DNA from: a virus
Taxonomy: Duplodnaviria; Heunggongvirae; Uroviricota; Caudoviricetes
Reading direction: 5' to 3' (one strand)
Virus record (IMG/VR): IMGVR_UViG_2563366928_000010
DNA: 21,036 nt
Of the stretch, positions 3,817 through 13,128 are shown piece after piece. The notes under the pieces were generated by a model that was not told the origin of the DNA, did not search any database, and saw only the letters and a list, made by a program, of their open reading frames with translations. How positions within the stretch are numbered: position 1 is the stretch's first letter; every line of letters starts with the position of its first letter. The translations under genes and the position numbers were made by a program.

Positions 3817-4094
3817 TTATCCATCTCCATATTAACAAGAACAATTATCTATAAAATATAGTAAATATGCGGGATCCGGGAGGACTTGTAACTATCATCT
3901 CCGGATCAGCATGTAGTTTTTATTTTTCCGGATGATATATGCCGCAATAATACCTCTGCATACAGATGCCTGCAAATATCTGCGAAGCATCCGGCGAGAA
4001 TAAACAAGGAAGTCTGAGGCTATCTTATATGATAGCCTGTTGCTCAAAAGACAATGATTCACTCATCAGAACCAACAACGCATAATGCAGATAA

Positions 4095-4171
4095 TGGACC
4101 GCCATCGAGGACTCGAACCCCGCGCAGCCAGCTTCGAAGGCTGGCGCTCTATCCCGATGAGCTAATGGCGG
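4095..4171 (-). tRNA. tRNA-Arg (anticodon UCG)
   Basis: 77 nt cloverleaf CCGCCAT..GCTC/GAGC D-stem..anticodon stem CCAGC/GCTGG with loop CTTCGAA..T-loop TTCGAGT..ATGGCGG-T-CCA, folded by hand. Confidence 0.75.
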
Positions 4172-4180
4172 TATGTGATA

Positions 4181-4256
4181 TGGTGGCCCTTGCTGGATTT
4201 GAACCAGCGACCTGGCGATTATGAGTCGCTCGCTCTCACCACTGAGCTAAAGGGCC
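4181..4256 (-). tRNA. tRNA with CAU anticodon, ileX/ileZ-like (tRNA-Ile2 lysidine type; would score as tRNA-Met in automated tools)
   Basis: GGCCCTTTAGCTCAGTGGTGAGAGCGAGCGACTCATAATCGCCAGGTCGCTGGTTCAAATCCAGCAAGGGCCACCA; closer to recalled E. coli ileX than to elongator tRNA-Met. Confidence 0.8.
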
Positions 4257-4296
4257 GGGCGCAGGATAATAACGGTACGTAACTAATTCTGCAATA

Positions 4297-4555
4297 TCAT
4301 CCGTTCTGACTGACTAAATCCTGAACTTCCCGAACCGTCTGCTCAAAACGTTCAGTCTCCAGCTCAACGCCTGTAGCACGACGGCCCAGTGCCAGTGCAG
4401 CTTTAACTGTTGAACCTGACCCCATAAAAAAATCTGCAACCAGGTCACCCGGACGACTGCTTGCGCTGATTATCTGCTGCAGCATTTCTGCCGGTTTTTC
4501 GCACGGATGTTTCCCGGGATAGAACTGCACCGGTTTATGCGTCCAGACATCGGTA
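4297..4555 (-). pseudogene. C-terminal remnant of a beta-class N6A/N4C DNA methyltransferase, ending at the IS1 boundary
   Basis: Translation ...HKPVQFYPGKHPCEKPAEMLQQIISASSRPGDLVADFFMGSGSTVKAALALGRRATGVELE carries motif-I-like FxGSGST and KP motif; reading frame upstream of IS1 hits a stop within about 50 codons and shows no catalytic DPPY region. Confidence 0.5.
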
Positions 4556-4570
4556 GGTAATGACTCCAAC

Positions 4571-5074
4571 TTATTGATAGTGTTTTATGTTCAGATAATG
4601 CCCGATGACTTTGTCATGCAGCTCCACCGATTTTGAGAACGACAGCAACTTCCGTCCCAGCCGTGCCAGGTGCTGCCTCAGATTCAGGTTATGCCGCTCA
4701 ATTCGCTGCGTATATCGCTTGCTGATTACGTGCAGCTTTCCCTTCAGGCGGGATTCATACAGCGGCCAGCCATCCGTCATCCATATCACCACGTCAAAGG
4801 GTGACAGCAGGCTCATAAGACGCCCCAGCGTCGCCATAGTGCGTTCACCGAATACGTGCGCAACAACCGTCTTCCGGAGACTGTCATACGCGTAAAACAG
4901 CCAGCGCTGGCGCGATTTAGCCCCGACATAGCCCCACTGTTCGTCCATTTCCGCGCAGACGATGACGTCACTGCCCGGCTGTATGCGCGAGGTTACCGAC
5001 TGCGGCCTGAGTTTTTTAAGTGACGTAAAATCGTGTTGAGGCCAACGCCCATAATGCGGGCAGTTGCCCGGCAT
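4571..5074 (-). CDS. insB: IS1 transposase InsB (expressed as InsAB' by frameshift)
   Basis: 167 aa ORF overlapping insA 3' end in the -1 frame, as in IS1. Confidence 0.85.
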
Positions 5075-5268
5075 CCAACGCCATTCATGGCCATATCAAT
5101 GATTTTCTGGTGCGTACCGGGTTGAGAAGCGGTGTAAGTGAACTGCAGTTGCCATGTTTTACGGCAGTGAGAGCAGAGATAGCGCTGATGTCCGGCGGTG
5201 CTTTTGCCGTTACGCACCACCCCGTCAGTAGCTGAACAGGAGGGACAGCTGATAGAAACAGAAGCCAC
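4993..5268 (-). CDS. insA: IS1 transposase InsA
   Basis: 91 aa [43 protein letters not shown]... Zn-finger InsA. Confidence 0.9.
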
Positions 5269-5408
5269 TGGAGCACCTCAAAAACACCATCATACACTAA
5301 ATCAGTAAGTTGGCAGCATCACCCATCGGTATACGGCACCTGCGCCGTCACGCCAAAATACCGCCGCAGTCGGCATTCACAACCACCAGCGCATTTAACG
5401 TTCAGGCA

Positions 5409-5433
5409 CAAAAAAACCCGCTCGACGGCGGGT
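5409..5433 (-). terminator. Putative intrinsic terminator (minus-strand sense)
   Basis: Hairpin ACCCGC-tcgacg-GCGGGT (5416-5433) preceded on plus strand by A7 (a U-run after the hairpin on the minus strand). Confidence 0.45.
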
Positions 5434-5479
5434 TTAAGCTGTGTGACGAAGTAACCACTCTTAACAGCATAACCAATTT

Positions 5480-5861
5480 TTTACGTACGTAAACTACTAA
5501 ATGATATTTGTGAGAATGCCACCGAGTGTTCAAAACACCACCACAAATACATAAGAAAACTTCAACAAATAACCAATGAATAATTTCCGATGTTATTTTT
5601 AGGTTGTTTAAATTAAGCCAAAAAATTATAGGGCGCTTATAAATAAGTGTCATTAATATAAATCAGCTAATAGATTTATTTTTGTTCAAACAAGAGCCAT
5701 GAATAGGATTAGATAGAAAAGGTTCAGATAAAAATAGAGATCTACGTCACAAATTAAATGAGAAACTAAAACTTACATCTTGAAATAATCACATTGATTA
5801 GATGAATATTTATCGCGCAGTGACATCATTTTTTTATAATAGTTCAAAAAAAGGGCGTACA
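5480..5861 (+). promoter_or_regulatory. AT-rich upstream regulatory region of the porin gene (exact promoter not resolved)
   Basis: About 380 bp strongly AT-rich non-coding DNA immediately upstream of the porin start, typical of enterobacterial porin control regions. Confidence 0.35.
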
Positions 5862-6944
5862 ATGAAAAAATTAACAGTGGCAATTTCTGCTGTAGCTGCA
5901 TCAGTACTGATGGCGATGTCTGCTCAGGCAGCTGAAATTTATAATAAAGACAGTAACAAGCTGGATCTATACGGGAAAGTTAATGCCAAGCACTACTTCT
6001 CCTCTAATGATGCAGATGATGGTGATACTACTTATGCTCGTCTTGGCTTCAAAGGTGAAACCCAAATCAACGATCAACTGACTGGTTTCGGTCAGTGGGA
6101 ATATGACTTCAAAGGCAACCGTGCTGAATCTCAAGGTTCTTCCAAAGACAAAACCCGTCTTGCATTTGCAGGCCTGAAATTTGGTGATTACGGCTCAATC
6201 GATTACGGTCGTAACTACGGTGTAGCATACGACATCGGTGCGTGGACTGACGTTCTGCCAGAATTCGGTGGTGATACCTGGACCCAGACAGATGTGTTCA
6301 TGACTGGCCGCACTACTGGTGTTGCAACTTATCGTAACAACGACTTCTTTGGTCTGGTCGATGGCCTGAACTTTGCTGCTCAGTATCAGGGTAAAAATGA
6401 CCGCACTGACGTAACTGAAGCCAATGGTGATGGTTTCGGTTTCTCCACTACTTATGAGTATGAAGGATTCGGCGTGGGTGCAACCTATGCTAAATCAGAT
6501 CGCACTGACGGTCAGGTCGCCTATGGTAAGAGCAAATTCAATGCCTCCGGCAAAAATGCGGAAGTATGGGCTGCAGGCCTGAAATATGATGCGAACAATA
6601 TCTATCTGGCTACCACATATTCTGAAACTCAGAATATGACCGTTTTTGGTAATAACCATATTGCAAACAAAGCACAAAACTTTGAAGCAGTAGCACAATA
6701 TCAGTTTGACTTCGGTCTGCGCCCATCTGTTGCTTACCTTCAGTCAAAAGGTAAAGACCTTGGTGTTCATGGTGACCGAGACTTAGTCAAGTATGTCGAT
6801 GTCGGTGCTACTTACTACTTTAATAAAAACATGTCCACTTTTGTTGATTACAAAATCAACTTAATTGACGATAGTAAGTTTACCAAAACAGCTGGTATTG
6901 ATACCGACGACATCGTCGCTGTAGGTCTGGTTTATCAGTTCTAA
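5862..6944 (+). CDS. nmpC: Outer-membrane general porin, NmpC/Lc/OmpC family (phage-borne)
   Basis: ATG at 5862 with AAGGG SD; signal peptide [23 protein letters not shown]; [16 protein letters not shown]... and C-terminal ...VGLVYQF beta-barrel terminus; matches recalled NmpC/Lc porins. Confidence 0.85.
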
Positions 6945-6954
6945 TCTGACTTAC

Positions 6955-6995
6955 GAAAAAGATATGTTGCGGGAGGCTTTGCCTCCCCAACATAT
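6955..6995 (-). terminator. Intrinsic terminator for minus-strand transcripts downstream of Q (tR'-like position)
   Basis: Near-perfect 15 bp inverted repeat ATATGTTGCGGGAGGC / GCCTCCCCAACATAT (6963-6995) followed on the minus strand by a U5 run (plus A-run 6956-6960); about 170 nt downstream of the Q stop. Confidence 0.5.
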
Positions 6996-7081
6996 AAGTG
7001 GAGCCCTCAAGCCACTTCCTTTAGAAGCACTACCTTGCTTCTTACTATATAAACCTTCTGTTATATATTACCCTTTATTTT

Positions 7082-7106
7082 GGGGGCGTTTCCACGCCCC
7101 ATTTTT
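7082..7106 (+). terminator. Intrinsic terminator of the porin gene
   Basis: Stem GGGGCG/CGCCCC (7083-7088, 7095-7100) with 6 nt loop then T5 run 7102-7106. Confidence 0.6.
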
Positions 7107-7132
7107 AATAACTTTTAGTAAACAATTGCATA

Positions 7133-7516
7133 TCAATTAGAATTATTAGCAACGATATCCATATCTAACCGGATATCTAATGCCATTAACATCCCTTCAA
7201 TTATGCCCTCAGCCTTCTGTAACCTTTTCCCGATATAACCATCCGAGCAGCAATGCTTACTTGCCAGTGACATGAATGTCATACCACATACATAATAATC
7301 TACTAATAAATCGTGTAAATCGCTGTTGTTCTTTTTCAGACGGGCCATGCACCCGCAAATGATCATCGCGTCATCGTCACAACATTGCGGGCGAGATTTT
7401 ACTTTTGAAGGAATTAATCCCTTAAAACCGGCAGCAATGGACGACCAGGTCACATCCTCATGATTATTTGCCGCCCATGCGCCCCAGCGTTCAAGAACCA
7501 TCTGAATATCACGCAT
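7133..7516 (-). CDS. Q: Late-gene antiterminator Q (phage 82 / DLP12 QuuD type)
   Basis: 127 aa from ATG at 7516: [60 protein letters not shown]... with Cys-rich Zn-binding region; matches recalled DLP12 YbcQ/QuuD. Confidence 0.8.
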
Positions 7517-8373
7517 TATTCGCACTCACCAACCAGATTGAGAATGACCGCTGCACCGTCGTCTTCCATGCATTCACCCTTACCACTTGCCAGAAACCAG
7601 CGGCACACCTCCACGGCTTCAGCGCGTGTCACCGGTTTGATGGTTGCCAGCAATTTTTCAAGGTAGCGCTCGCGGTCATATACCGATTCGTGATGCTCAG
7701 AGTAACCAAACTCATCGCCCTGTTCTTTAGTTGCAGTGTGGCGAACACTGTAGAGCCAGTCCCAGTAAACGAACTCGCGAACAACATCAGACAGCGTATA
7801 AGGCTCAGGCAGCACATCGCGATATCCATCAACAAATGCCCGACGCTGTTCATCAATTTCGTTCATGCGGCTGCCGCCAATGCTTCCGGCTTTTTTCTCT
7901 GCCGCAGTCCAGCCCCAGAGATGATCGTTGATAAATTTCTGGGAAGACCTGATGACCCGCTCTGCTTCCACATCTTCGAGCGCTGCTTCATAGCTACCAA
8001 ACGTAGCCCTGACTGATGCCGCTTTTTTGATGTTCTCCCGGGCGTTCCTGATAACCTGCGCAGGGTTATCCATGCCGATGATGCCGAACGCAACTTGGAA
8101 AGGTTCGTAACCATTCGCCAGCAGATAACGCGAATAGCGTTCCTGAGCCTCTTTTGGGGAAATTTTAATTTTCACCAGCGCAGCCTCAGCAGCATCCAGA
8201 TGTGCGGGTTCGTTCAGACGGATAACCTCCAGCACCCAAAGATAAGCATCAGTCTGCTTATGCCCGGTGATTCTCCGTTGCTCTGGCAGGGGCTTGATGT
8301 TTGCGAGGGCGGAGCTGTACGCTGCCGTCGGGATGGTGAATAGTGCTTTATGTTCGTTATTATCAGTACGCAT
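7516..8373 (-). CDS. Hypothetical phage protein, 285 aa, translationally coupled between primase and Q
   Basis: ATG at 8373 overlaps primase stop; stop overlaps Q start (TAATG); no family recognised by eye. Confidence 0.6.
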
Positions 8374-9341
8374 TACGCAACCGCCTTTTTCTTATGGAAA
8401 ACCAGCTCTCGAACCTGATCACCGTTCATGAGCATATTGTTGAAATCATCGTGATCCGGCCAGTACACGCTCACGCGCTGCAGGTCATTCTTTGCCATCA
8501 GATTGGCATGAGCACATTCGCAAGCCGCAGCCAGCCCGGTGGCGCTGTTCTCGTCACGGTCGGCAAAAATAATCAGGTGCAGAACACCAGCTGGTACGCG
8601 AAACTTTTTCATAAAGCCGCTGTTAATGGTTGCCCAGGTGTTCACGTTATAAATCTGGTGCGCTGACAGCGCTGTTTCGATGCCTTCGGCGATACCCAGA
8701 GTGCTGGCGACAGGAAACATGCGGATAGCTACAGAACGAGCGTGATCCAAATAGTTATCTTCCTGCAGGGATTTGAGGCGCTTTGCACTGCTACCGATAT
8801 CTGCTTTTTTATCACCATCAAGCAGAGTCTGGTGCAGATAGCACAACTCCCCTTTATCGTCCGTAGCAAGTGAATAAAGAGACTGGAACACACTCCCGTT
8901 GTGTCTCTGCCTGGCATTGAACCGGATCGCCTCAGCAGGAAGACTGAATATTCCACGAGAATTAAGATACGCTGCGCCGGATGTACCACGCAGTGCCTCC
9001 AGTTTTGAAAACTTGCTCAATACCCGTTTGCGTAAGCTGGTGGCGCTGCTGGTTACCGGGATTTTAACCCGTTGGTAATCATTACCGATCAGGCGGTCTA
9101 TTTCGGTACAAATCTCGTTAAATGGCTTCGCCTGTGTCAGGGTGACAAGTTTCATACCATCGCCACTACCACATACACAGATCCACGTTCCTGCACCGTC
9201 GCGGTCGTCAATTCGGAACTTGCCACGTGCACCGCATACCGGGCATTCACCCTTGAAGTGATTTTTTCCGGTTATCGGCGGCAGACCGAAGTGCTCTAAT
9301 ATTTCAGGCCAGCGGCCTTTCGCTGCATCTGCTGTTTTCAT
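8373..9341 (-). CDS. Phage DNA primase (Zn-ribbon + Toprim)
   Basis: N-terminal CPVCGARGKFRIDD...GTWICVCG zinc ribbon; Toprim motifs GIAEGIETALS and IIFADRDENS (DxD). Confidence 0.8.
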   Translation of the reverse strand: MKTADAAKGRWPEILEHFGLPPITGKNHFKGECPVCGARGKFRIDDRDGAGTWICVCGSGDGMKLVTLTQAKPFNEICTEIDRLIGNDYQRVKIPVTSSATSLRKRVLSKFSKLEALRGTSGAAYLNSRGIFSLPAEAIRFNARQRHNGSVFQSLYSLATDDKGELCYLHQTLLDGDKKADIGSSAKRLKSLQEDNYLDHARSVAIRMFPVASTLGIAEGIETALSAHQIYNVNTWATINSGFMKKFRVPAGVLHLIIFADRDENSATGLAAACECAHANLMAKNDLQRVSVYWPDHDDFNNMLMNGDQVRELVFHKKKAVA

Positions 9342-9342
9342 C

Positions 9343-11001
9343 TTACTGACTCAGATTGTTTATATTTTTCTGGAGTTGGTGCTTTGCCTGCATGATGCGC
9401 CAGGCCTCACTGCCTGCCGGTATCTCACGTCGTTCATCACGTTCCTGAGATAAATCAATCGTTGTTTGTGCGTTTTCAGTGACCTTCTGAACCCGCTGGT
9501 GGCCTTTGGCAAACCGGATCAGTTTGTGTCTGATGTAGTTATTTACCTCAGGGGTAATTTCCATCGGAAAGTTACTCAGTCCGTCAGGCCACTCACCGAA
9601 CTTTTCCCGGAAAGTGTGAGCACACCATCCGTCACTGACTGGACGCCCCAGCGAAGCACGCTGGCGCTGATAAAATTTGATCTGACTCCACCAGGACTGT
9701 TTCTCTGCCTTCGTCGACTGATGCTGATTTTTACCCAGCTTATTAAGTTTGCGGCTAGTGTCAGTATCAACGTCTTCACCTCGCAGCGGCTTGTGTCCAC
9801 ATTTCGGGCAAACATAGACGCCTGCTGGCTTCATGTAGTGGCATTGAGGGCATTCATGTGGCAGTTTTTCGGCCCGTTCCTCAACTGCCCGGCGCGCGCT
9901 TTCCTCCATGCCGTCAGACTTACCGGGAAGCTCGTCGTACTCGATTGAATCCGGATAACCCAAACGGTGCACGGTGCCGCTGTGATCGAAGATAAGGCAG
10001 GACTCTTTACCCGGTGCGGTGCGCAGCCCACGCCCGAGCGCCTGCAACCAGCGAATTTCGCTTTTTGTTGGCCTGGCGTAGATGATGCAACGAACGTCAC
10101 TATCGAATCCGGCTACCAGAACGCCCACACTAACGATGATTTTCGTTGCACCGGTTTCAAAGCGGTGAATGATGGTCTGGCGCTCATCTACCGGAGTGTC
10201 TGCGGTCATTACCTCAGCGTTAACACCCGCCAGGTTAAACTGGATTGTCAGGTAATTGGCGTGGGCTACGTTGACGCAGAAAGCGATGGTAGGTAGATCC
10301 CGACCATTCTCCAGCCAGTTCTGTACAATGTCGCCCACCAGCGTAGAGCCGCACATGATTTCAGCCAGCTGTGTTTCGTTGTAATCGCGGCCGTACTCAA
10401 GCGAAGATGTGGTTTTAACACCTTTCAGATCCGGCTTAGTTGGCGCGTAAAATTCGTATTTACTCAGATCGCCACGCTGGATTAACTCGCCGATGGTGGT
10501 CGGTTTAATCAGTCGGTCATAGTATTTGCCCAGGAACGGGGAAAACGGAGTACCCGACAGGCCAATCACCTTTACGCCTTTGCCGCGCAGACGTTCGATA
10601 TCCTTCAGGATGCGTTTTTTACGCAGGTGCGCTTCGTCGATAATCAGCAGATCGATATTTTCAGGAAAAACACGACGAATAAGCGTATCAGCGCTGGCAA
10701 TCTGAATTTTCCGGTCCGGATCGTAGTTCGGGTGATCCGCCCAGATATAACCGATTTCATCTCCAGGTAAACCATACTGCACGAACCGATTAGCCGTCTG
10801 ACCAATCAGGATGGTGTACGGAACACAGAACAGAGCGCGCATACCACGGCTGACAAAACCAGCAACTATGAAGGCTGCCAGACCCGTTTTACCGCTACCT
10901 GTTGGCGAATACACCATGAAGGTGTCGTTTGCCTTCCAGTAACGGCGCAACATGTTTAACGCCCGTTCCTGTGCAAAATTCGGCGTGATCGTCAGCTGCA
11001 T
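9343..11001 (-). CDS. Phage SF2 DEAH-box replicative helicase with C-terminal Zn ribbons
   Basis: Strong SD GGGGAGG + ATG at 11001; Walker A SPTGSGKT, Walker B LLIIDEAH, SGTP motif; C-terminal CPQCHY...CPKCGH. Confidence 0.85.
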   Translation of the reverse strand: MQLTITPNFAQERALNMLRRYWKANDTFMVYSPTGSGKTGLAAFIVAGFVSRGMRALFCVPYTILIGQTANRFVQYGLPGDEIGYIWADHPNYDPDRKIQIASADTLIRRVFPENIDLLIIDEAHLRKKRILKDIERLRGKGVKVIGLSGTPFSPFLGKYYDRLIKPTTIGELIQRGDLSKYEFYAPTKPDLKGVKTTSSLEYGRDYNETQLAEIMCGSTLVGDIVQNWLENGRDLPTIAFCVNVAHANYLTIQFNLAGVNAEVMTADTPVDERQTIIHRFETGATKIIVSVGVLVAGFDSDVRCIIYARPTKSEIRWLQALGRGLRTAPGKESCLIFDHSGTVHRLGYPDSIEYDELPGKSDGMEESARRAVEERAEKLPHECPQCHYMKPAGVYVCPKCGHKPLRGEDVDTDTSRKLNKLGKNQHQSTKAEKQSWWSQIKFYQRQRASLGRPVSDGWCAHTFREKFGEWPDGLSNFPMEITPEVNNYIRHKLIRFAKGHQRVQKVTENAQTTIDLSQERDERREIPAGSEAWRIMQAKHQLQKNINNLSQ

Positions 11002-11594
11002 TGTGCTGCCTCCCCATGGTTCAGCGGGAGGCGCCTGAAATGGTGACCGCGATGAGACTTTGTTCTTCCAGCAATAACAGCATAAACACTACCGTGATCA
11101 AACCCGGCACTAATTAGCGCCTTTTTCCCGCAAAAGGTTTGCTCTTCCCTGGTCGCAATATTTGTGGCGACAATCAGGCCCTTAAATTGTTTGTTGTTCG
11201 CCCCCTGAGAATTATTCAGCCCGGTGTGAATAGAATGCTGAATGTTTTCGCTATGGCTAACCCACTCCAGATTGGATGCATGGTTATTCAGCTTGTTGCC
11301 GTCCTTATGGTTCACTTCAGGGTGGTTGTAAGGGTTGCTGCAAAAAGCCAGCGCTACCAGACGGTGTACGGCAAAAGTTTGGCGATTACGTTTGTAGCTC
11401 AGGTTAACGGTTTTATATCCATCCCGGCGCACTCTTCCCTTGAGGAACACGCCACGAATTTGGCGAATAAAAAATTCCGATTCAGCAATTCGATTAACCC
11501 CACGGATGCGTCCCGCCGAGCTAACGAGGTAAGCATCACCATACGGAGCAACAGGAACCGGAAGCCATTTTTCACCATCAAAACTGTTAACCAT
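10992..11594 (-). CDS. HNH homing-type endonuclease (NUMOD4-like N-terminus + HNH_3-like core)
   Basis: Internal ATG at 11594 with GAGGTGA SD; GEKWLPVP...YLVSSAGRIRG and HRLVALAFCSNPYNHPEVNHKDGNKLNNHASNLEW motifs; 10 nt overlap with helicase start. Confidence 0.75.
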   Translation of the reverse strand: MVNSFDGEKWLPVPVAPYGDAYLVSSAGRIRGVNRIAESEFFIRQIRGVFLKGRVRRDGYKTVNLSYKRNRQTFAVHRLVALAFCSNPYNHPEVNHKDGNKLNNHASNLEWVSHSENIQHSIHTGLNNSQGANNKQFKGLIVATNIATREEQTFCGKKALISAGFDHGSVYAVIAGRTKSHRGHHFRRLPLNHGEAAQCS

Positions 11595-11612
11595 AAAATC
11601 ACCTCTGAACAT

Positions 11613-11852
11613 TTACATCTGGACGTCTAGGCGTCCGCACATCTTCTGGTATTTCCCCTTTACAGAGATCTACCTAACCTATGTACCCGTCTTCTTGGAA
11701 AAGCCTGTTCCAGCGCTTCGCGCTAAAAGATCAACACCGCCCCCTTTCCCCCATAAACATTTAGGGGGTGGCAAACACATCCAGACATATAGACGTCTAA
11801 ATATTTTTACCATTTTCAATCAGCCACCGGACACCTTTAAGCCCGGTACCAA
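11613..11852. promoter_or_regulatory. Structured intergenic region with two GACGTC-centred palindromes and a C5/G5 hairpin; candidate promoter/operator or origin region
   Basis: GGACGTCTAGGCGTCC at 11621-11636 and TAGACGTCTA at 11790-11799 flank GCCCCCTTTCCCCC...GGGGGTGGC (11738-11771). Confidence 0.3.
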
Positions 11853-12146
11853 TCAGGAGCGCGATTGCGTTCCTGCCAGGGGCGGCTGAGTTGTATACCC
11901 CTGTAAAGCTCTGCCCTGATTTCTCACAAACAAGCGGAGCCTTGTGTTTGCTTCGTGCCTTGCTCTGTTCTCCTTGCGGAATGAAACAGGCTCAGCGTCA
12001 AAAGTGATTTCGTATACCTCCGCATATTTCAGGGCGACCTTCCGTCTCAGTGACGGAGGCAGCCCCTGTAACTGCTGCTGAATCCACTCTTCGTCTGCCT
12101 GGCAGTACCTAGATGGCATCTCTGTCTGAACGTAATTCTGGGACAT
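11853..12146 (-). CDS. Hypothetical early protein (97 aa) in the cII-equivalent position
   Basis: ATG at 12146 with strong SD GGAGAGGTGA 9 nt upstream; no family recognised. Confidence 0.5.
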   Translation of the reverse strand: MSQNYVQTEMPSRYCQADEEWIQQQLQGLPPSLRRKVALKYAEVYEITFDAEPVSFRKENRARHEANTRLRLFVRNQGRALQGYTTQPPLAGTQSRS

Positions 12147-12360
12147 ACAAGCCCTTCACCTCTCCCGTGCGCGCTAAGCTTGGATGTGTATATGGAATGT
12201 TCGGATCCAGATGGCAGAGAATGGCAACATCCTCCGGAACGCCCCGCGTTTTCCACTTTCCAACTCCCTGACTACCACGAGGCCTTCCTTTCTTTGGGAA
12301 CCTGCGGCCAATAGCGGCATTGGTCTTAAATTGAGTTTTTAATATTTCATAAAGGGTCAT
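12109..12360 (-). CDS. Hypothetical basic protein (83 aa) in the cro-equivalent position, divergent from the repressor
   Basis: ATG at 12360 with GAGG SD 7 nt upstream; basic (GRRFPKKGRPRGS); overlaps the next ORF by 38 nt in another frame; no clear HTH seen by eye. Confidence 0.4.
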   Translation of the reverse strand: MTLYEILKTQFKTNAAIGRRFPKKGRPRGSQGVGKWKTRGVPEDVAILCHLDPNIPYTHPSLARTGEVKGLYVPELRSDRDAI

Positions 12361-12471
12361 TCTTTAGCCTCACACCGGATACTCTGTTATCCAAGAATGT
12401 TAAACGCGAGAATCCAAAGTATCAAGAAATTCTGTTACTTTAGTATCAGCAGCCATGAAAGGAGAAGAAAA
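12361..12471. promoter_or_regulatory. Divergent promoter/operator region (OR-like) between cro-position gene and repressor
   Basis: Repeated (A/G)GTATC(A/C) motifs at 12377-12382 (inverted), 12418-12425, 12442-12449; candidate minus-strand promoter -35 TTGATA (complement of 12420-12425), 17 bp spacer, -10 TAACAT (complement of 12397-12402). Confidence 0.45.
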
Positions 12472-13128
12472 ATGAAATCTTTAGGTGAACGCCTCATCAA
12501 CGCACGACAAAAAGCTGGGTTAACGCAAGATGCGTTGGCTAAAAAAGCAGGGGTCACCAGAGTTGCAATCAGTAAAGCCGAGCAAGGCCTTACAAAAAGT
12601 TTCAACGGTGACACCCTTTTTAAAGTCGCAGCTGCACTGCAGTGTTCACCGCAGTGGCTTCAGAACGGAGATGAAAAAGATAAGCATTGGGAAAATAATG
12701 TTAAGAGCTGCCCACAGAGAGACACAGCACACTCTTACCCTGTAATTAACTGGGTTCAGGCAGGATTATTCGCAACTGCTGGTGATGACTACAACATGTA
12801 TGATCAGGATAATTGGAGGCATTCTGTAAAATACGCTGGTGAGAGGGGGTTCTGGCTGGAAGTGCACGGAGACTCAATGACTTCGCCCGTAGGAATAACA
12901 TTTCCTGAAGGAATGTCGATCCTTGTCAACCCAGATAAAGAAGTTTTTTCAGGGTGTTACGTCATCGCCAGAAAAAAATCTACCCATGAAGCAACATTCA
13001 AAAAATATATTTCTGAAATGGGAAAGGCGTTTCTAAAGCCCCTTAATCCACAATATCCAATCATAGAAATGGACAATGATTGCGAAATAGTAGGTGTTGT
13101 GGTTGATGCCAGGTGGGATATTTTCTGA
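12472..13128 (+). CDS. cI: CI-like prophage repressor (N-terminal HTH_XRE + C-terminal S24 LexA-like autopeptidase)
   Basis: AAAGGAG SD + ATG at 12472; HTH LGERLINARQKAGLTQDALAKKAGVTRVAISKAE; S24 catalytic motifs GDSM and downstream Lys (ATFKKY). Confidence 0.85.
   Translation: MKSLGERLINARQKAGLTQDALAKKAGVTRVAISKAEQGLTKSFNGDTLFKVAAALQCSPQWLQNGDEKDKHWENNVKSCPQRDTAHSYPVINWVQAGLFATAGDDYNMYDQDNWRHSVKYAGERGFWLEVHGDSMTSPVGITFPEGMSILVNPDKEVFSGCYVIARKKSTHEATFKKYISEMGKAFLKPLNPQYPIIEMDNDCEIVGVVVDARWDIF

Follow-up and report, generated by a model that had tools for sequence, protein, structure and literature searches.

The gene on the minus strand at 10992..11594 of the window, by which we mean the whole 21,036-nucleotide stretch of tailed-phage DNA analysed here, is predicted to encode an HNH endonuclease of the I-HmuI type, carried on a free-standing and optional gene cassette that fills a variable slot between regulatory leader and helicase in the replication module of a lambdoid E. 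coli prophage. The assignment of this 200-aa product draws on Pfam, structure and allele comparison, and we put the probability of the reading at roughly 0.7. Although real and apparently mobile, it is an unremarkable member of a familiar class of selfish genes, one more free-standing endonuclease resembling I-HmuI.

Architecture and active site of the HNH protein

Two Pfam families match the protein above their curated cut-offs, NUMOD4 (E 4.8e-9, residues 14-72) and HNH_3 (E 1e-8, residues 81-123), both in the numbering of the 206-aa open reading frame (ORF). PHROG HNH families match at 1e-40, and a phmmer search against the PDB retrieved I-HmuI (1U3E, E 9.6e-18) over residues 47-188, the C-terminal helix-turn-helix (HTH) of I-HmuI included. 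The AF2 model has a pLDDT of 89.5; it displays strands over residues 10-75, the region of the NUMOD4 β-sheet, with pLDDT around 90 or higher, and helices at residues 156-162 and 167-174 in the C-terminal region. On searching the PDB with this model, Foldseek returned 1u3e as the sole significant match (E 9.5e-12, 189 columns), the identity in the structural alignment being only ~28%. The domains follow one another as an N-terminal NUMOD4 β domain, an HNH_3 catalytic core and a putative C-terminal HTH. The protein itself does not reach E 0.01 with PF22083, the C-terminal HTH domain of I-HmuI, which does match relatives of 55-66% identity. A free-standing HNH endonuclease of homing type with a NUMOD4-like N-terminus had been proposed in an earlier note on this DNA, and the two Pfam matches and the I-HmuI structure bear the proposal out.

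In the alignment with I-HmuI, N95, H96 and N117 of the protein correspond to D74, H75 and N96. The 44 homologues compared all share H96, N104 and N108, and almost all of them N95, N117 and H120. The Asn that precedes the catalytic His is found in 109 of 120 matches and is the norm of the subfamily, on which ground inactivation via the Asp-to-Asn exchange at the position of I-HmuI Asp74 is rejected. The gene is under strong purifying selection, with dN/dS values of 0.07-0.11 at dS 0.6-1.6 for four HNH alleles.

Position and signals in the early operon

From its first ATG the ORF spans 10992..11612 on the minus strand and encodes 206 aa. The real start, however, is the ATG at 11594, giving 200 aa, because a Shine-Dalgarno sequence fits this codon, the diverged alleles lack the upstream ATG and the RefSeq annotation agrees, placing the start of WP_016234524.1 at 11594. 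The Shine-Dalgarno sequence, GAGGTGA, was read 5 nt upstream of the ATG (11599..11605, minus strand) and is kept in alleles of 80-88% identity. At the other end of the gene, the TGA stop (10992-10994) and the ATG of the helicase (10999-11001) produce an overlap of 10 nt with the sequence ATGCAGCTGA, which suggests translational coupling of the two genes.

The helicase, a DEAD/ResIII replicative enzyme according to its ORF, Pfam and RefSeq, occupies 9343..11001 on the minus strand. RefSeq starts it later in this genome, at window position 10953, and at the equivalent of 11001 in most other genomes; other genera conserve the N-terminal sequence encoded from 11001. The next gene downstream, at 8373..9341 on the minus strand, encodes a Toprim/zinc-ribbon primase (domain matches, RefSeq). 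Both the 10-nt overlap and the place of the HNH gene at the head of these helicase and primase genes, on the same strand, had been described in the earlier note and hold. Upstream, in the position of lambda cII, lies an early-operon gene of 97 aa (11853..12146, minus strand) defined by its ORF and a match to phrog_852. As a crude consensus scan of the minus strand from 11600 to 11850 gave no match for a promoter or terminator of the HNH gene's own, the gene is probably transcribed by read-through from the cII-position gene. We propose that the early lytic operon reads, in order, cro-like gene, cII-position gene, HNH gene, helicase and primase, and that it would form one transcription unit. An Rfam search of 10500-12500 found no family at E <= 1, group I and II introns included; the HNH gene is an independent ORF in an intergenic slot, with its own Shine-Dalgarno sequence and outside any intron or intein.

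Slot alleles, leader and exchange of the cassette

HNH DNA occurs in 7 of 5426 complete E. coli genomes. A search with the helicase only located it in 87 complete E. coli genomes, 80 of which have in the slot a segment with a conserved 19-codon upstream ORF; the seven HNH-positive genomes account for the rest, and the HNH gene is absent from ~92% of the E. coli copies of the module. The possibility that every related replication module carries the gene, named in the earlier note as what would refute mobility, is contradicted by this HNH-less majority (80/87). Among the IMG/VR loci, 2 of the 68 scorable helicase loci contain the gene, and in representative genomes, one per species, it is intact in one and truncated in another of 28 loci. 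A single Salmonella example (L131) retains a 91-aa ORF with NUMOD4 only, devoid of HNH core and HTH and directly upstream of an intact helicase ORF; from its sequence, it is a decayed, nuclease-less HNH copy.

The slot has three alleles: empty with the upstream ORF, a 124-aa gene, or the HNH gene. The 124-aa gene (375 bp) has no Pfam family, and its sole match is phrog_1347, of unknown function. The presence of this alternative gene at 19 loci shows the slot to be a general hotspot. DNA specific to the HNH allele with respect to the HNH-less ones, the cassette proper, spans 11019..11645 (minus strand), as delimited by alignments and pairwise BLAST of the slots. Its downstream junction lies between CTGAACCAT and GGGGAGGCAGCACAATG, and its upstream junction just past the conserved leader island described below. 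Comparison with HNH-less relatives, the check put forward in the earlier note, defines these boundaries, but what they enclose is no simple insertion: the HNH gene replaces ~220 bp of the HNH-less allele, most of the conserved upstream ORF included. Of the 19 codons of this ORF the HNH gene retains the last ~6, the stop and the 10-nt helicase overlap, its own final codons and stop being sequence common to the HNH-less alleles. At the start of the helicase the HNH ORF has probably supplanted the upstream ORF, and helicase translation would therefore probably be coupled to the HNH ORF. The relatives from Salmonella, Serratia, Yersinia, Providencia and metagenomes without exception overlap the start of the helicase or lie against it, and the same helicase-primase pair directly follows every clade member examined, down to 50% identity and in six genera.

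Immediately upstream of the HNH gene the leader is structured and G-rich and is flanked by paired repeats. Allele alignment reveals a conserved island (11655..11726, minus strand) with the AGCGCGAAGCGCT hairpin and the sequence CTTTTCCAA...GGTTAGGTAGATC, which HNH-less alleles also have: in the G375 type it is 90% identical, in the basal type 76% over 55 nt. A further hairpin, directly 3' of the stop of the cII-position gene (11824..11849, minus strand), has stems that vary between lineages and a conserved loop, UUAAAGGU, in a by-eye reading with covariation unscored. The two intergenic GACGTC sites lie at 11622 and 11792. Window-wide the hexamer is not enriched (6 observed versus 3.7 expected); the 15-nt motif TAGACGTCYAKAYGT is found only at these two sites, with 0.05 expected. 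Site B (11615..11637, minus strand), ~20 nt upstream of the HNH start, consists of three 8-bp-periodic repeats, CGGACGCC TAGACGTC CAGATGT, with the GACGTC of 11622 inside; site A (11777..11799, minus strand) is the matching repeat TAGACGTC TATATGTC TGGATGT around the GACGTC of 11792. Long-range RNA pairing of A with B is possible on paper, but the MFE fold pairs site A with itself. GACGTC is kept at both sites in all HNH-positive loci of E. coli, Salmonella and Serratia, and a GTAC-type pair is present in every HNH-less E. coli or IMG/VR locus. In Yersinia, however, the HNH-positive loci have GTAC-type sites, while the HNH-less Photorhabdus locus L121 has a GACGTC-type pair. An HNH-specific role of the motif, as binding site, immunity variant or scar, is rejected because of these two cases; on sequence grounds, GACGTC is simply one of the forms that a paired repeat takes. 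The suggestion of the earlier note that the 240-bp intergenic region with its GACGTC palindromes could contain an insertion scar or cleavage-site remnants is not supported either, as this region is a structured leader conserved in all three slot types, the HNH-less ones included.

One and the same protein, WP_016234524.1, is found alongside four different cro/repressor pairs, that is at least four immunity regions, and several helicase alleles. From 10991 to 11771 the window is 100% identical to loci L006-L009, whereas the adjoining kilobase of the helicase is 2.2% different. Pairwise divergence between L008 and L005 delineates a block (10909..11670, minus strand) that has been exchanged as a unit: divergence is ~14% within it and 0.2-0.3% in flanks of ~1.5-1.9 kb on each side, the HNH alleles are 86% identical, and the breakpoints at ~10909 and ~11670 are sharp. 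One falls in the first ~100 bp of the helicase, leaving ~90 bp (~30 codons) of it inside the block, and the other in the conserved leader island. We read these first ~30 helicase codons as a co-conversion tract. In L106 the HNH protein is 66% identical, with 97% for the helicase and 100% for the cII-position protein, and in L108 the HNH identity drops to 52%, with 83% for the adjoining helicase. Taken together, the comparisons support a cassette history decoupled from that of the flanks, as a mobile element would show, in line with the mobility suggested at the outset by the earlier note. Such exchanges could arise without any endonuclease, through the ordinary homologous recombination of mosaic lambdoid phages where their flanks are conserved.

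A tabulation of the helicase's first 300 bp (94 variable columns, about 80 loci) revealed no HNH-specific 'immunity' substitutions, a point against homing. The helicase 5' haplotypes of HNH-positive loci are also present in HNH-less loci; most of the former have CAG as codon 2, as do several HNH-less loci, and two diverged HNH alleles are without that codon. The idea of immunity substitutions in the helicase 5' end is rejected, since no allele is specific to HNH-positive loci.

Proposed homing, rival explanations and known systems

We propose that homing would take place where an HNH-positive phage and an HNH-less relative meet in one cell, either by co-infection or by infection or induction in a lysogen. 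The enzyme would nick or cut the HNH-less DNA, and our guess at a likely target is a site in or near the ~220 bp missing from HNH-positive genomes, or the helicase 5' end. Recombinational repair from the HNH-positive copy would then provide the recipient with the cassette, together with the helicase sequence next to it. By analogy with T4 mobE, the outcome would be homing with co-conversion and marker exclusion. A beneficial accessory gene would also fit the low frequency (8%), the dN/dS of ~0.1 and a tie to one slot that is very old (dS up to 1.6).

One such benefit might be interference, the nuclease being kept for damaging the replication region of rival related phages or prophages, with gene conversion as a by-product. 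Purifying selection over the long term and the strict tie to one replication module across genera agree with this explanation; enzymes resembling I-HmuI have been shown to cause marker exclusion (PMC12724721), and an HNH intron endonuclease reportedly mediates competition of co-infecting phages (PMC11620839). By sequence, interference is indistinguishable from homing, and both can hold together, but the cassette-bounded exchanges show gene movement and a frequency of 8% is low for a clearly advantageous weapon; as the principal role we consider it unlikely, albeit worth weighing. Alternatively, the protein could be a domesticated accessory of the helicase-primase replicon, a nickase acting on the phage's own leader or an origin-like region (for instance the paired 8-bp-periodic repeats) that starts or regulates replication and is co-expressed with the helicase by translational coupling. 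This would be in keeping with the synteny and helicase overlap conserved down to 50% identity, the dN/dS of about 0.1, the paired repeats around the structured, G-rich leader immediately upstream and the nickase activity of I-HmuI-type enzymes (PMC2790892, PMC3017599). It is nevertheless very unlikely, given that the gene is missing from 80 of 87 E. coli modules and from most modules of other species, that a nuclease-less stump persists before an intact helicase ORF, that the repeat type fails to track the gene (Photorhabdus, Yersinia) and that diverged HNH alleles adjoin near-identical helicases. Decidedly unlikely, too, is a conjecture that draws on both ideas: the clade would be a dedicated partner of one enterobacterial helicase-primase replicon, resident in one slot for perhaps tens of millions of years after having taken over the coupling upstream ORF, and nicking the leader or origin either of rivals (replicon-specific interference) or of its own phage (replication control).

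A catalytically inactive DNA-binding regulator retaining the HNH-like fold would explain the Asn in place of the metal ligand Asp74 of I-HmuI as well as the two DNA-binding domains. Such a function is highly improbable, as the same Asn is the subfamily norm (109 of 120 relatives), variation at the catalytic His96 and the Asn residues is absent or rare, and no other sign of active-site loss is apparent. HNH proteins also assist packaging: HK97 gp74 is a short HNH protein, encoded beside the terminase genes and needed for cos cleavage. What speaks for this type is the occurrence of an HNH protein in a lambdoid prophage. The present gene, however, has the cII-position gene and the helicase as its neighbours in the early replication operon, away from the terminase, most phages with this module lack it, and its 200-aa product combines NUMOD4 and HNH_3 with three-domain likeness to I-HmuI over almost the full length; position and architecture effectively rule a terminase-assisting role out.

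Taken by itself the annotation is routine; the locus has modest value as a clean natural example in temperate enterobacterial phages, a group in which work on homing lags far behind that on T-even or dairy phages. Its three defined slot alleles and sharp breakpoints, in an E. coli prophage that is easy to engineer, would allow direct tests of homing, of marker exclusion and of any cost or benefit to the phage. The locus also illustrates how a gene can enter an operon without upsetting translational coupling to an essential downstream gene.

I-HmuI of Bacillus phage SPO1 (PDB 1U3E) is the reference for HNH homing endonucleases of its type. The present protein shares with it the N-terminal β DNA-binding domain, the ββα-metal HNH core and probably the C-terminal HTH, in the same order, as well as the catalytic His and the distal Asn. 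It differs in the exchange of the metal-ligand Asp for Asn, and its gene stands free in an intergenic slot of an enterobacterial prophage, a temperate phage. T4 mobE is likewise free-standing and promoterless, and its product nicks the adjacent gene at its 5' end in phage that lack the endonuclease (PMC2790892); free-standing T-even endonucleases of the HNH or GIY-YIG type depend on upstream transcription, and flanking markers are co-converted with them (PMC2790892, PMC2988022). Like mobE, the HNH gene has a conserved gene on either side and no promoter match of its own, and the exchanged block here reaches ~90 bp into the helicase. In contrast to the T4 system, the host phage is temperate, the neighbour is a replicative helicase instead of nrdB, and the gene substitutes for a conserved upstream ORF, whose overlap with the start of the next gene it has taken over. 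In lactococcal Skunavirus, I-HmuI-like endonuclease genes lie mostly in the replication module and cluster by insertion site; they are optional, truncated copies are common, and marker exclusion has been shown experimentally (PMC12724721). The enterobacterial gene is similarly an optional member of a replication module, and its clade follows the helicase slot. Whereas Skunavirus are virulent phages of Gram-positive hosts with several endonuclease genes per genome, here a single copy resides in a prophage, and its association with the slot is conserved across genera of the Enterobacterales.

The endonuclease gene in the early lytic operon

The window and a lambdoid prophage inserted beside mlrA/yohO in E. 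coli AF14 are identical in sequence. The early lytic operon lies on the minus strand and runs from a cro-like gene (12109-12360) through a 97-aa gene at the lambda cII position (11853-12146), a leader of ~260 bp, the HNH gene (10992-11594), a DEAD/ResIII helicase (9343-11001) and a toprim primase (8373-9341) to a helix-turn-helix protein and then the Q antiterminator; the LexA/S24-type repressor (12397-13128) is divergent from it. RefSeq starts the helicase of the window genome at 10953, 48 nt shorter than in most other genomes, and the start at 11001 is supported by an N-terminus conserved across genera. In the late region (about 3900-7000; 4296-7145 in the compared locus L001) are genes for tRNA-Arg and tRNA-Ile, a DNA methyltransferase gene disrupted by an IS1 element and, just past the Q antiterminator, an OmpC-like porin gene.

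The HNH reading frame matches NUMOD4 (E 4.8e-9) and HNH_3 (E 1e-8) in Pfam, both above the curated cut-offs. Its stop codon TGA (10992-10994) and the helicase ATG (10999-11001) create a 10-nt overlap, and the gene organization described in the earlier note is thus confirmed. The real gene product is the 200-aa form with its start at 11594: a GAGGTGA ribosome-binding site precedes this start, and diverged alleles lack the upstream ATG at 11612.

I-HmuI (1U3E) is the sole significant sequence relative with a solved structure (E 9.6e-18, residues 47-188), and the match takes in the C-terminal helix-turn-helix. An AlphaFold2 model built from 44 homologues has a mean pLDDT of 89.5, and its only significant PDB match in Foldseek is again 1u3e (E 9.5e-12 over 189 columns). 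The catalytic His H96, N104 and N108 are invariant among homologues, and N95, N117 and H120 nearly so. In contrast to I-HmuI, the metal ligand Asp74 is replaced by Asn; as 109 of 120 relatives also have Asn here, this is the rule in the subfamily and not a sign of inactivation. Together with the invariant H96, this leaves the notion of a dead nuclease unsupported. A dN/dS of 0.07-0.11 at dS 0.6-1.6 among four HNH alleles points to a protein kept functional over a long time.

Slot alleles, upstream frame and leader

In 83 loci taken from E. coli genomes and IMG/VR contigs, the slot, measured from the cII-position stop codon to the helicase ATG, comes in three length classes: a basal form (about 413-430 bp, 50 loci), a form with a 124-aa gene (about 722-734 bp, 19 loci) and the HNH form (about 846-889 bp, 14 loci, a number partly reflecting a targeted search for the HNH gene). 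The 124-aa protein (L002, 3314-3688, minus strand, and 18 IMG/VR loci: L017-L028, L030, L044-L048) belongs to phrog_1347, of unassigned function, and has no Pfam family. An unbiased count comes from the 87 complete E. coli genomes bearing the helicase: 7 hold HNH DNA and 80 a proximal segment absent from the HNH allele, the two being mutually exclusive and jointly covering 87/87. The comparison with HNH-less prophages proposed in the earlier note therefore yields HNH-less alleles, in which ~220 bp stand in place of the cassette.

This missing stretch includes the first two-thirds of a 19-codon upstream ORF, which is conserved in 79/81 HNH-less loci (MKTTSQNYYLISTGAAQWS in most), present in the 80 E. 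coli genomes, retained downstream of the 124-aa gene and absent from the window; RefSeq does not annotate it. It overlaps the helicase start by 10 nt (for example L003, 3203-3262, minus strand) and probably acts as a leader that couples helicase translation to its own. The HNH frame continues into its last ~6 codons (...EAAQCS*). Both frames stop at one shared TGA within the helicase start. The HNH allele is thus a replacement rather than a simple insertion, and it owes its 10-nt overlap to the ancestral upstream ORF. In other HNH alleles the overlap with the helicase start is the more usual TAATG.

The GACGTC palindromes at 11622 and 11792 had been regarded as possible insertion scars or cleavage-site remnants. 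They are real and lie inside two copies of an 8-bp-periodic repeat of ~23 bp, site A (11777-11799, minus strand) and site B (11615-11637, minus strand), whose 15-nt core is confined to these two places in the window. However, all three slot types share one leader order: a hairpin after the cII-position stop, site A, a G-rich tract, a conserved island and site B. Paired repeats occupy the same positions in L002, L003, L096, L100, L102 and L121; they come in at least two types, with a GACGTC or a GTAC core, and both copies in a locus are always of the same type. HNH-less E. coli loci have GTACTAG/TAGTAC instead of the GACGTC type. Beyond E. coli, the GACGTC type and the HNH gene come apart: HNH-positive Yersinia loci have GTAC-type repeats and an HNH-less Photorhabdus locus GACGTC-type ones. 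By its shared architecture and untied repeat type, the region is no scar but a functional leader or origin-like part of the replication module. The leader RNA is unusually stable (z = -4.2), and the repeat pair could mark an origin or operator pair.

After the cII-position stop, one or two hairpins (11824-11849, minus strand) display a conserved 8-nt loop, UU(A/G)AAGGU (L003, L074, L014, L102, L096). Their stems vary by lineage and stay complementary (ACCGGGC/GTCCGGT, CAGGC/GCCTG, CTGAC/GTCAG, TTCGGG/CCCGAA; covariation judged by eye). No Rfam family matches this element, which looks like a protein-recognised, perhaps nut-like, RNA hairpin.

Probable mobility of the cassette

Several lines of evidence indicate that the history of the cassette is decoupled from its surroundings. 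An identical HNH protein (WP_016234524.1) is shared by loci that have four different cro/repressor pairs and several alleles of the helicase. Between the window and L006-L009, 10991-11771 is 100% identical, whereas the adjoining helicase kilobase differs by 2.2%. In L008 and L005, a block with sharp edges (10909-11670), comprising the cassette and the first ~30 helicase codons, diverges by about 14%, although the sequence to either side, about 1.5 kb in the helicase and about 1.9 kb in the leader and immunity region, diverges by only 0.2-0.3%. HNH and helicase protein divergence do not track each other: identities are 66% and 97% in L106 (cII-position protein 100%), 52% and 83% in L108, and 86% and 78% in L102.

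All HNH relatives looked up lie immediately 5' of the same helicase-primase pair and overlap or abut the helicase start (Salmonella 86%, one assembly 66%, Serratia 59%, Yersinia 56%, two metagenomic contigs 52%, Providencia 50%). Among 28 representative helicase loci, one genome per species, one has an intact HNH gene, one a NUMOD4-only stump and 26 neither. The stump, in Salmonella enterica s1 (L131, 2230-2505), is a 91-aa remnant that lacks the nuclease core and C-terminal domain and still abuts the helicase start. Sporadic presence, site fidelity, cassette-bounded exchange with a short neighbour-gene tract, purifying selection in intact copies and occasional decay add up to a textbook homing-endonuclease signature, and the earlier proposal of a mobile HNH endonuclease is right in the main.

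Two further observations concern the helicase gene. Near its 3' end (9400-9700), a mosaic patch with 46 differences per 100 bp to L005-L009, against 0-4 elsewhere in the gene, indicates a separate recombination event. In the HNH-positive locus L106 (2248-4830), the helicase is extended to 860 aa by a 303-aa insertion after ...GKES. This insertion starts with Cys, ends in ...VHN and is followed by Cys, as inteins characteristically are; it has no Pfam match. If it is an intein, the same replication module would hold a second selfish element.

Alternative roles, possible target and precedents

Ordinary homologous recombination among mosaic lambdoid phages could also underlie the cassette-bounded exchanges, and the alternative 124-aa gene shows the slot to be a general hotspot. 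Retention of the gene as a weapon against competing phages is compatible with all data, has a reported precedent (PMC11620839), and would allow homing alongside. An accessory role in the phage's own replication is unlikely, because 92% of E. coli modules do without the gene, a stump with no nuclease core still stands in front of an intact helicase ORF and the repeat type does not follow the gene. A terminase cofactor is ruled out by gene position and architecture.

For the putative homing endonuclease, our best guess at the target is the upstream-ORF segment missing from HNH-positive genomes, or the helicase junction; the first 300 bp of the helicase contain no HNH-linked substitutions that could mark a protected target. 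The closest experimental precedents are T4 mobE, a free-standing, promoterless gene whose product nicks endonuclease-less phage at the 5' end of the adjoining gene (PMC2790892), and the I-HmuI-like genes found in Skunavirus phages. Most of the latter are located in the replication module; they group according to insertion site and bring about marker exclusion (PMC12724721). The HNH gene belongs to a known kind of element, of which it is an ordinary, well-behaved representative.
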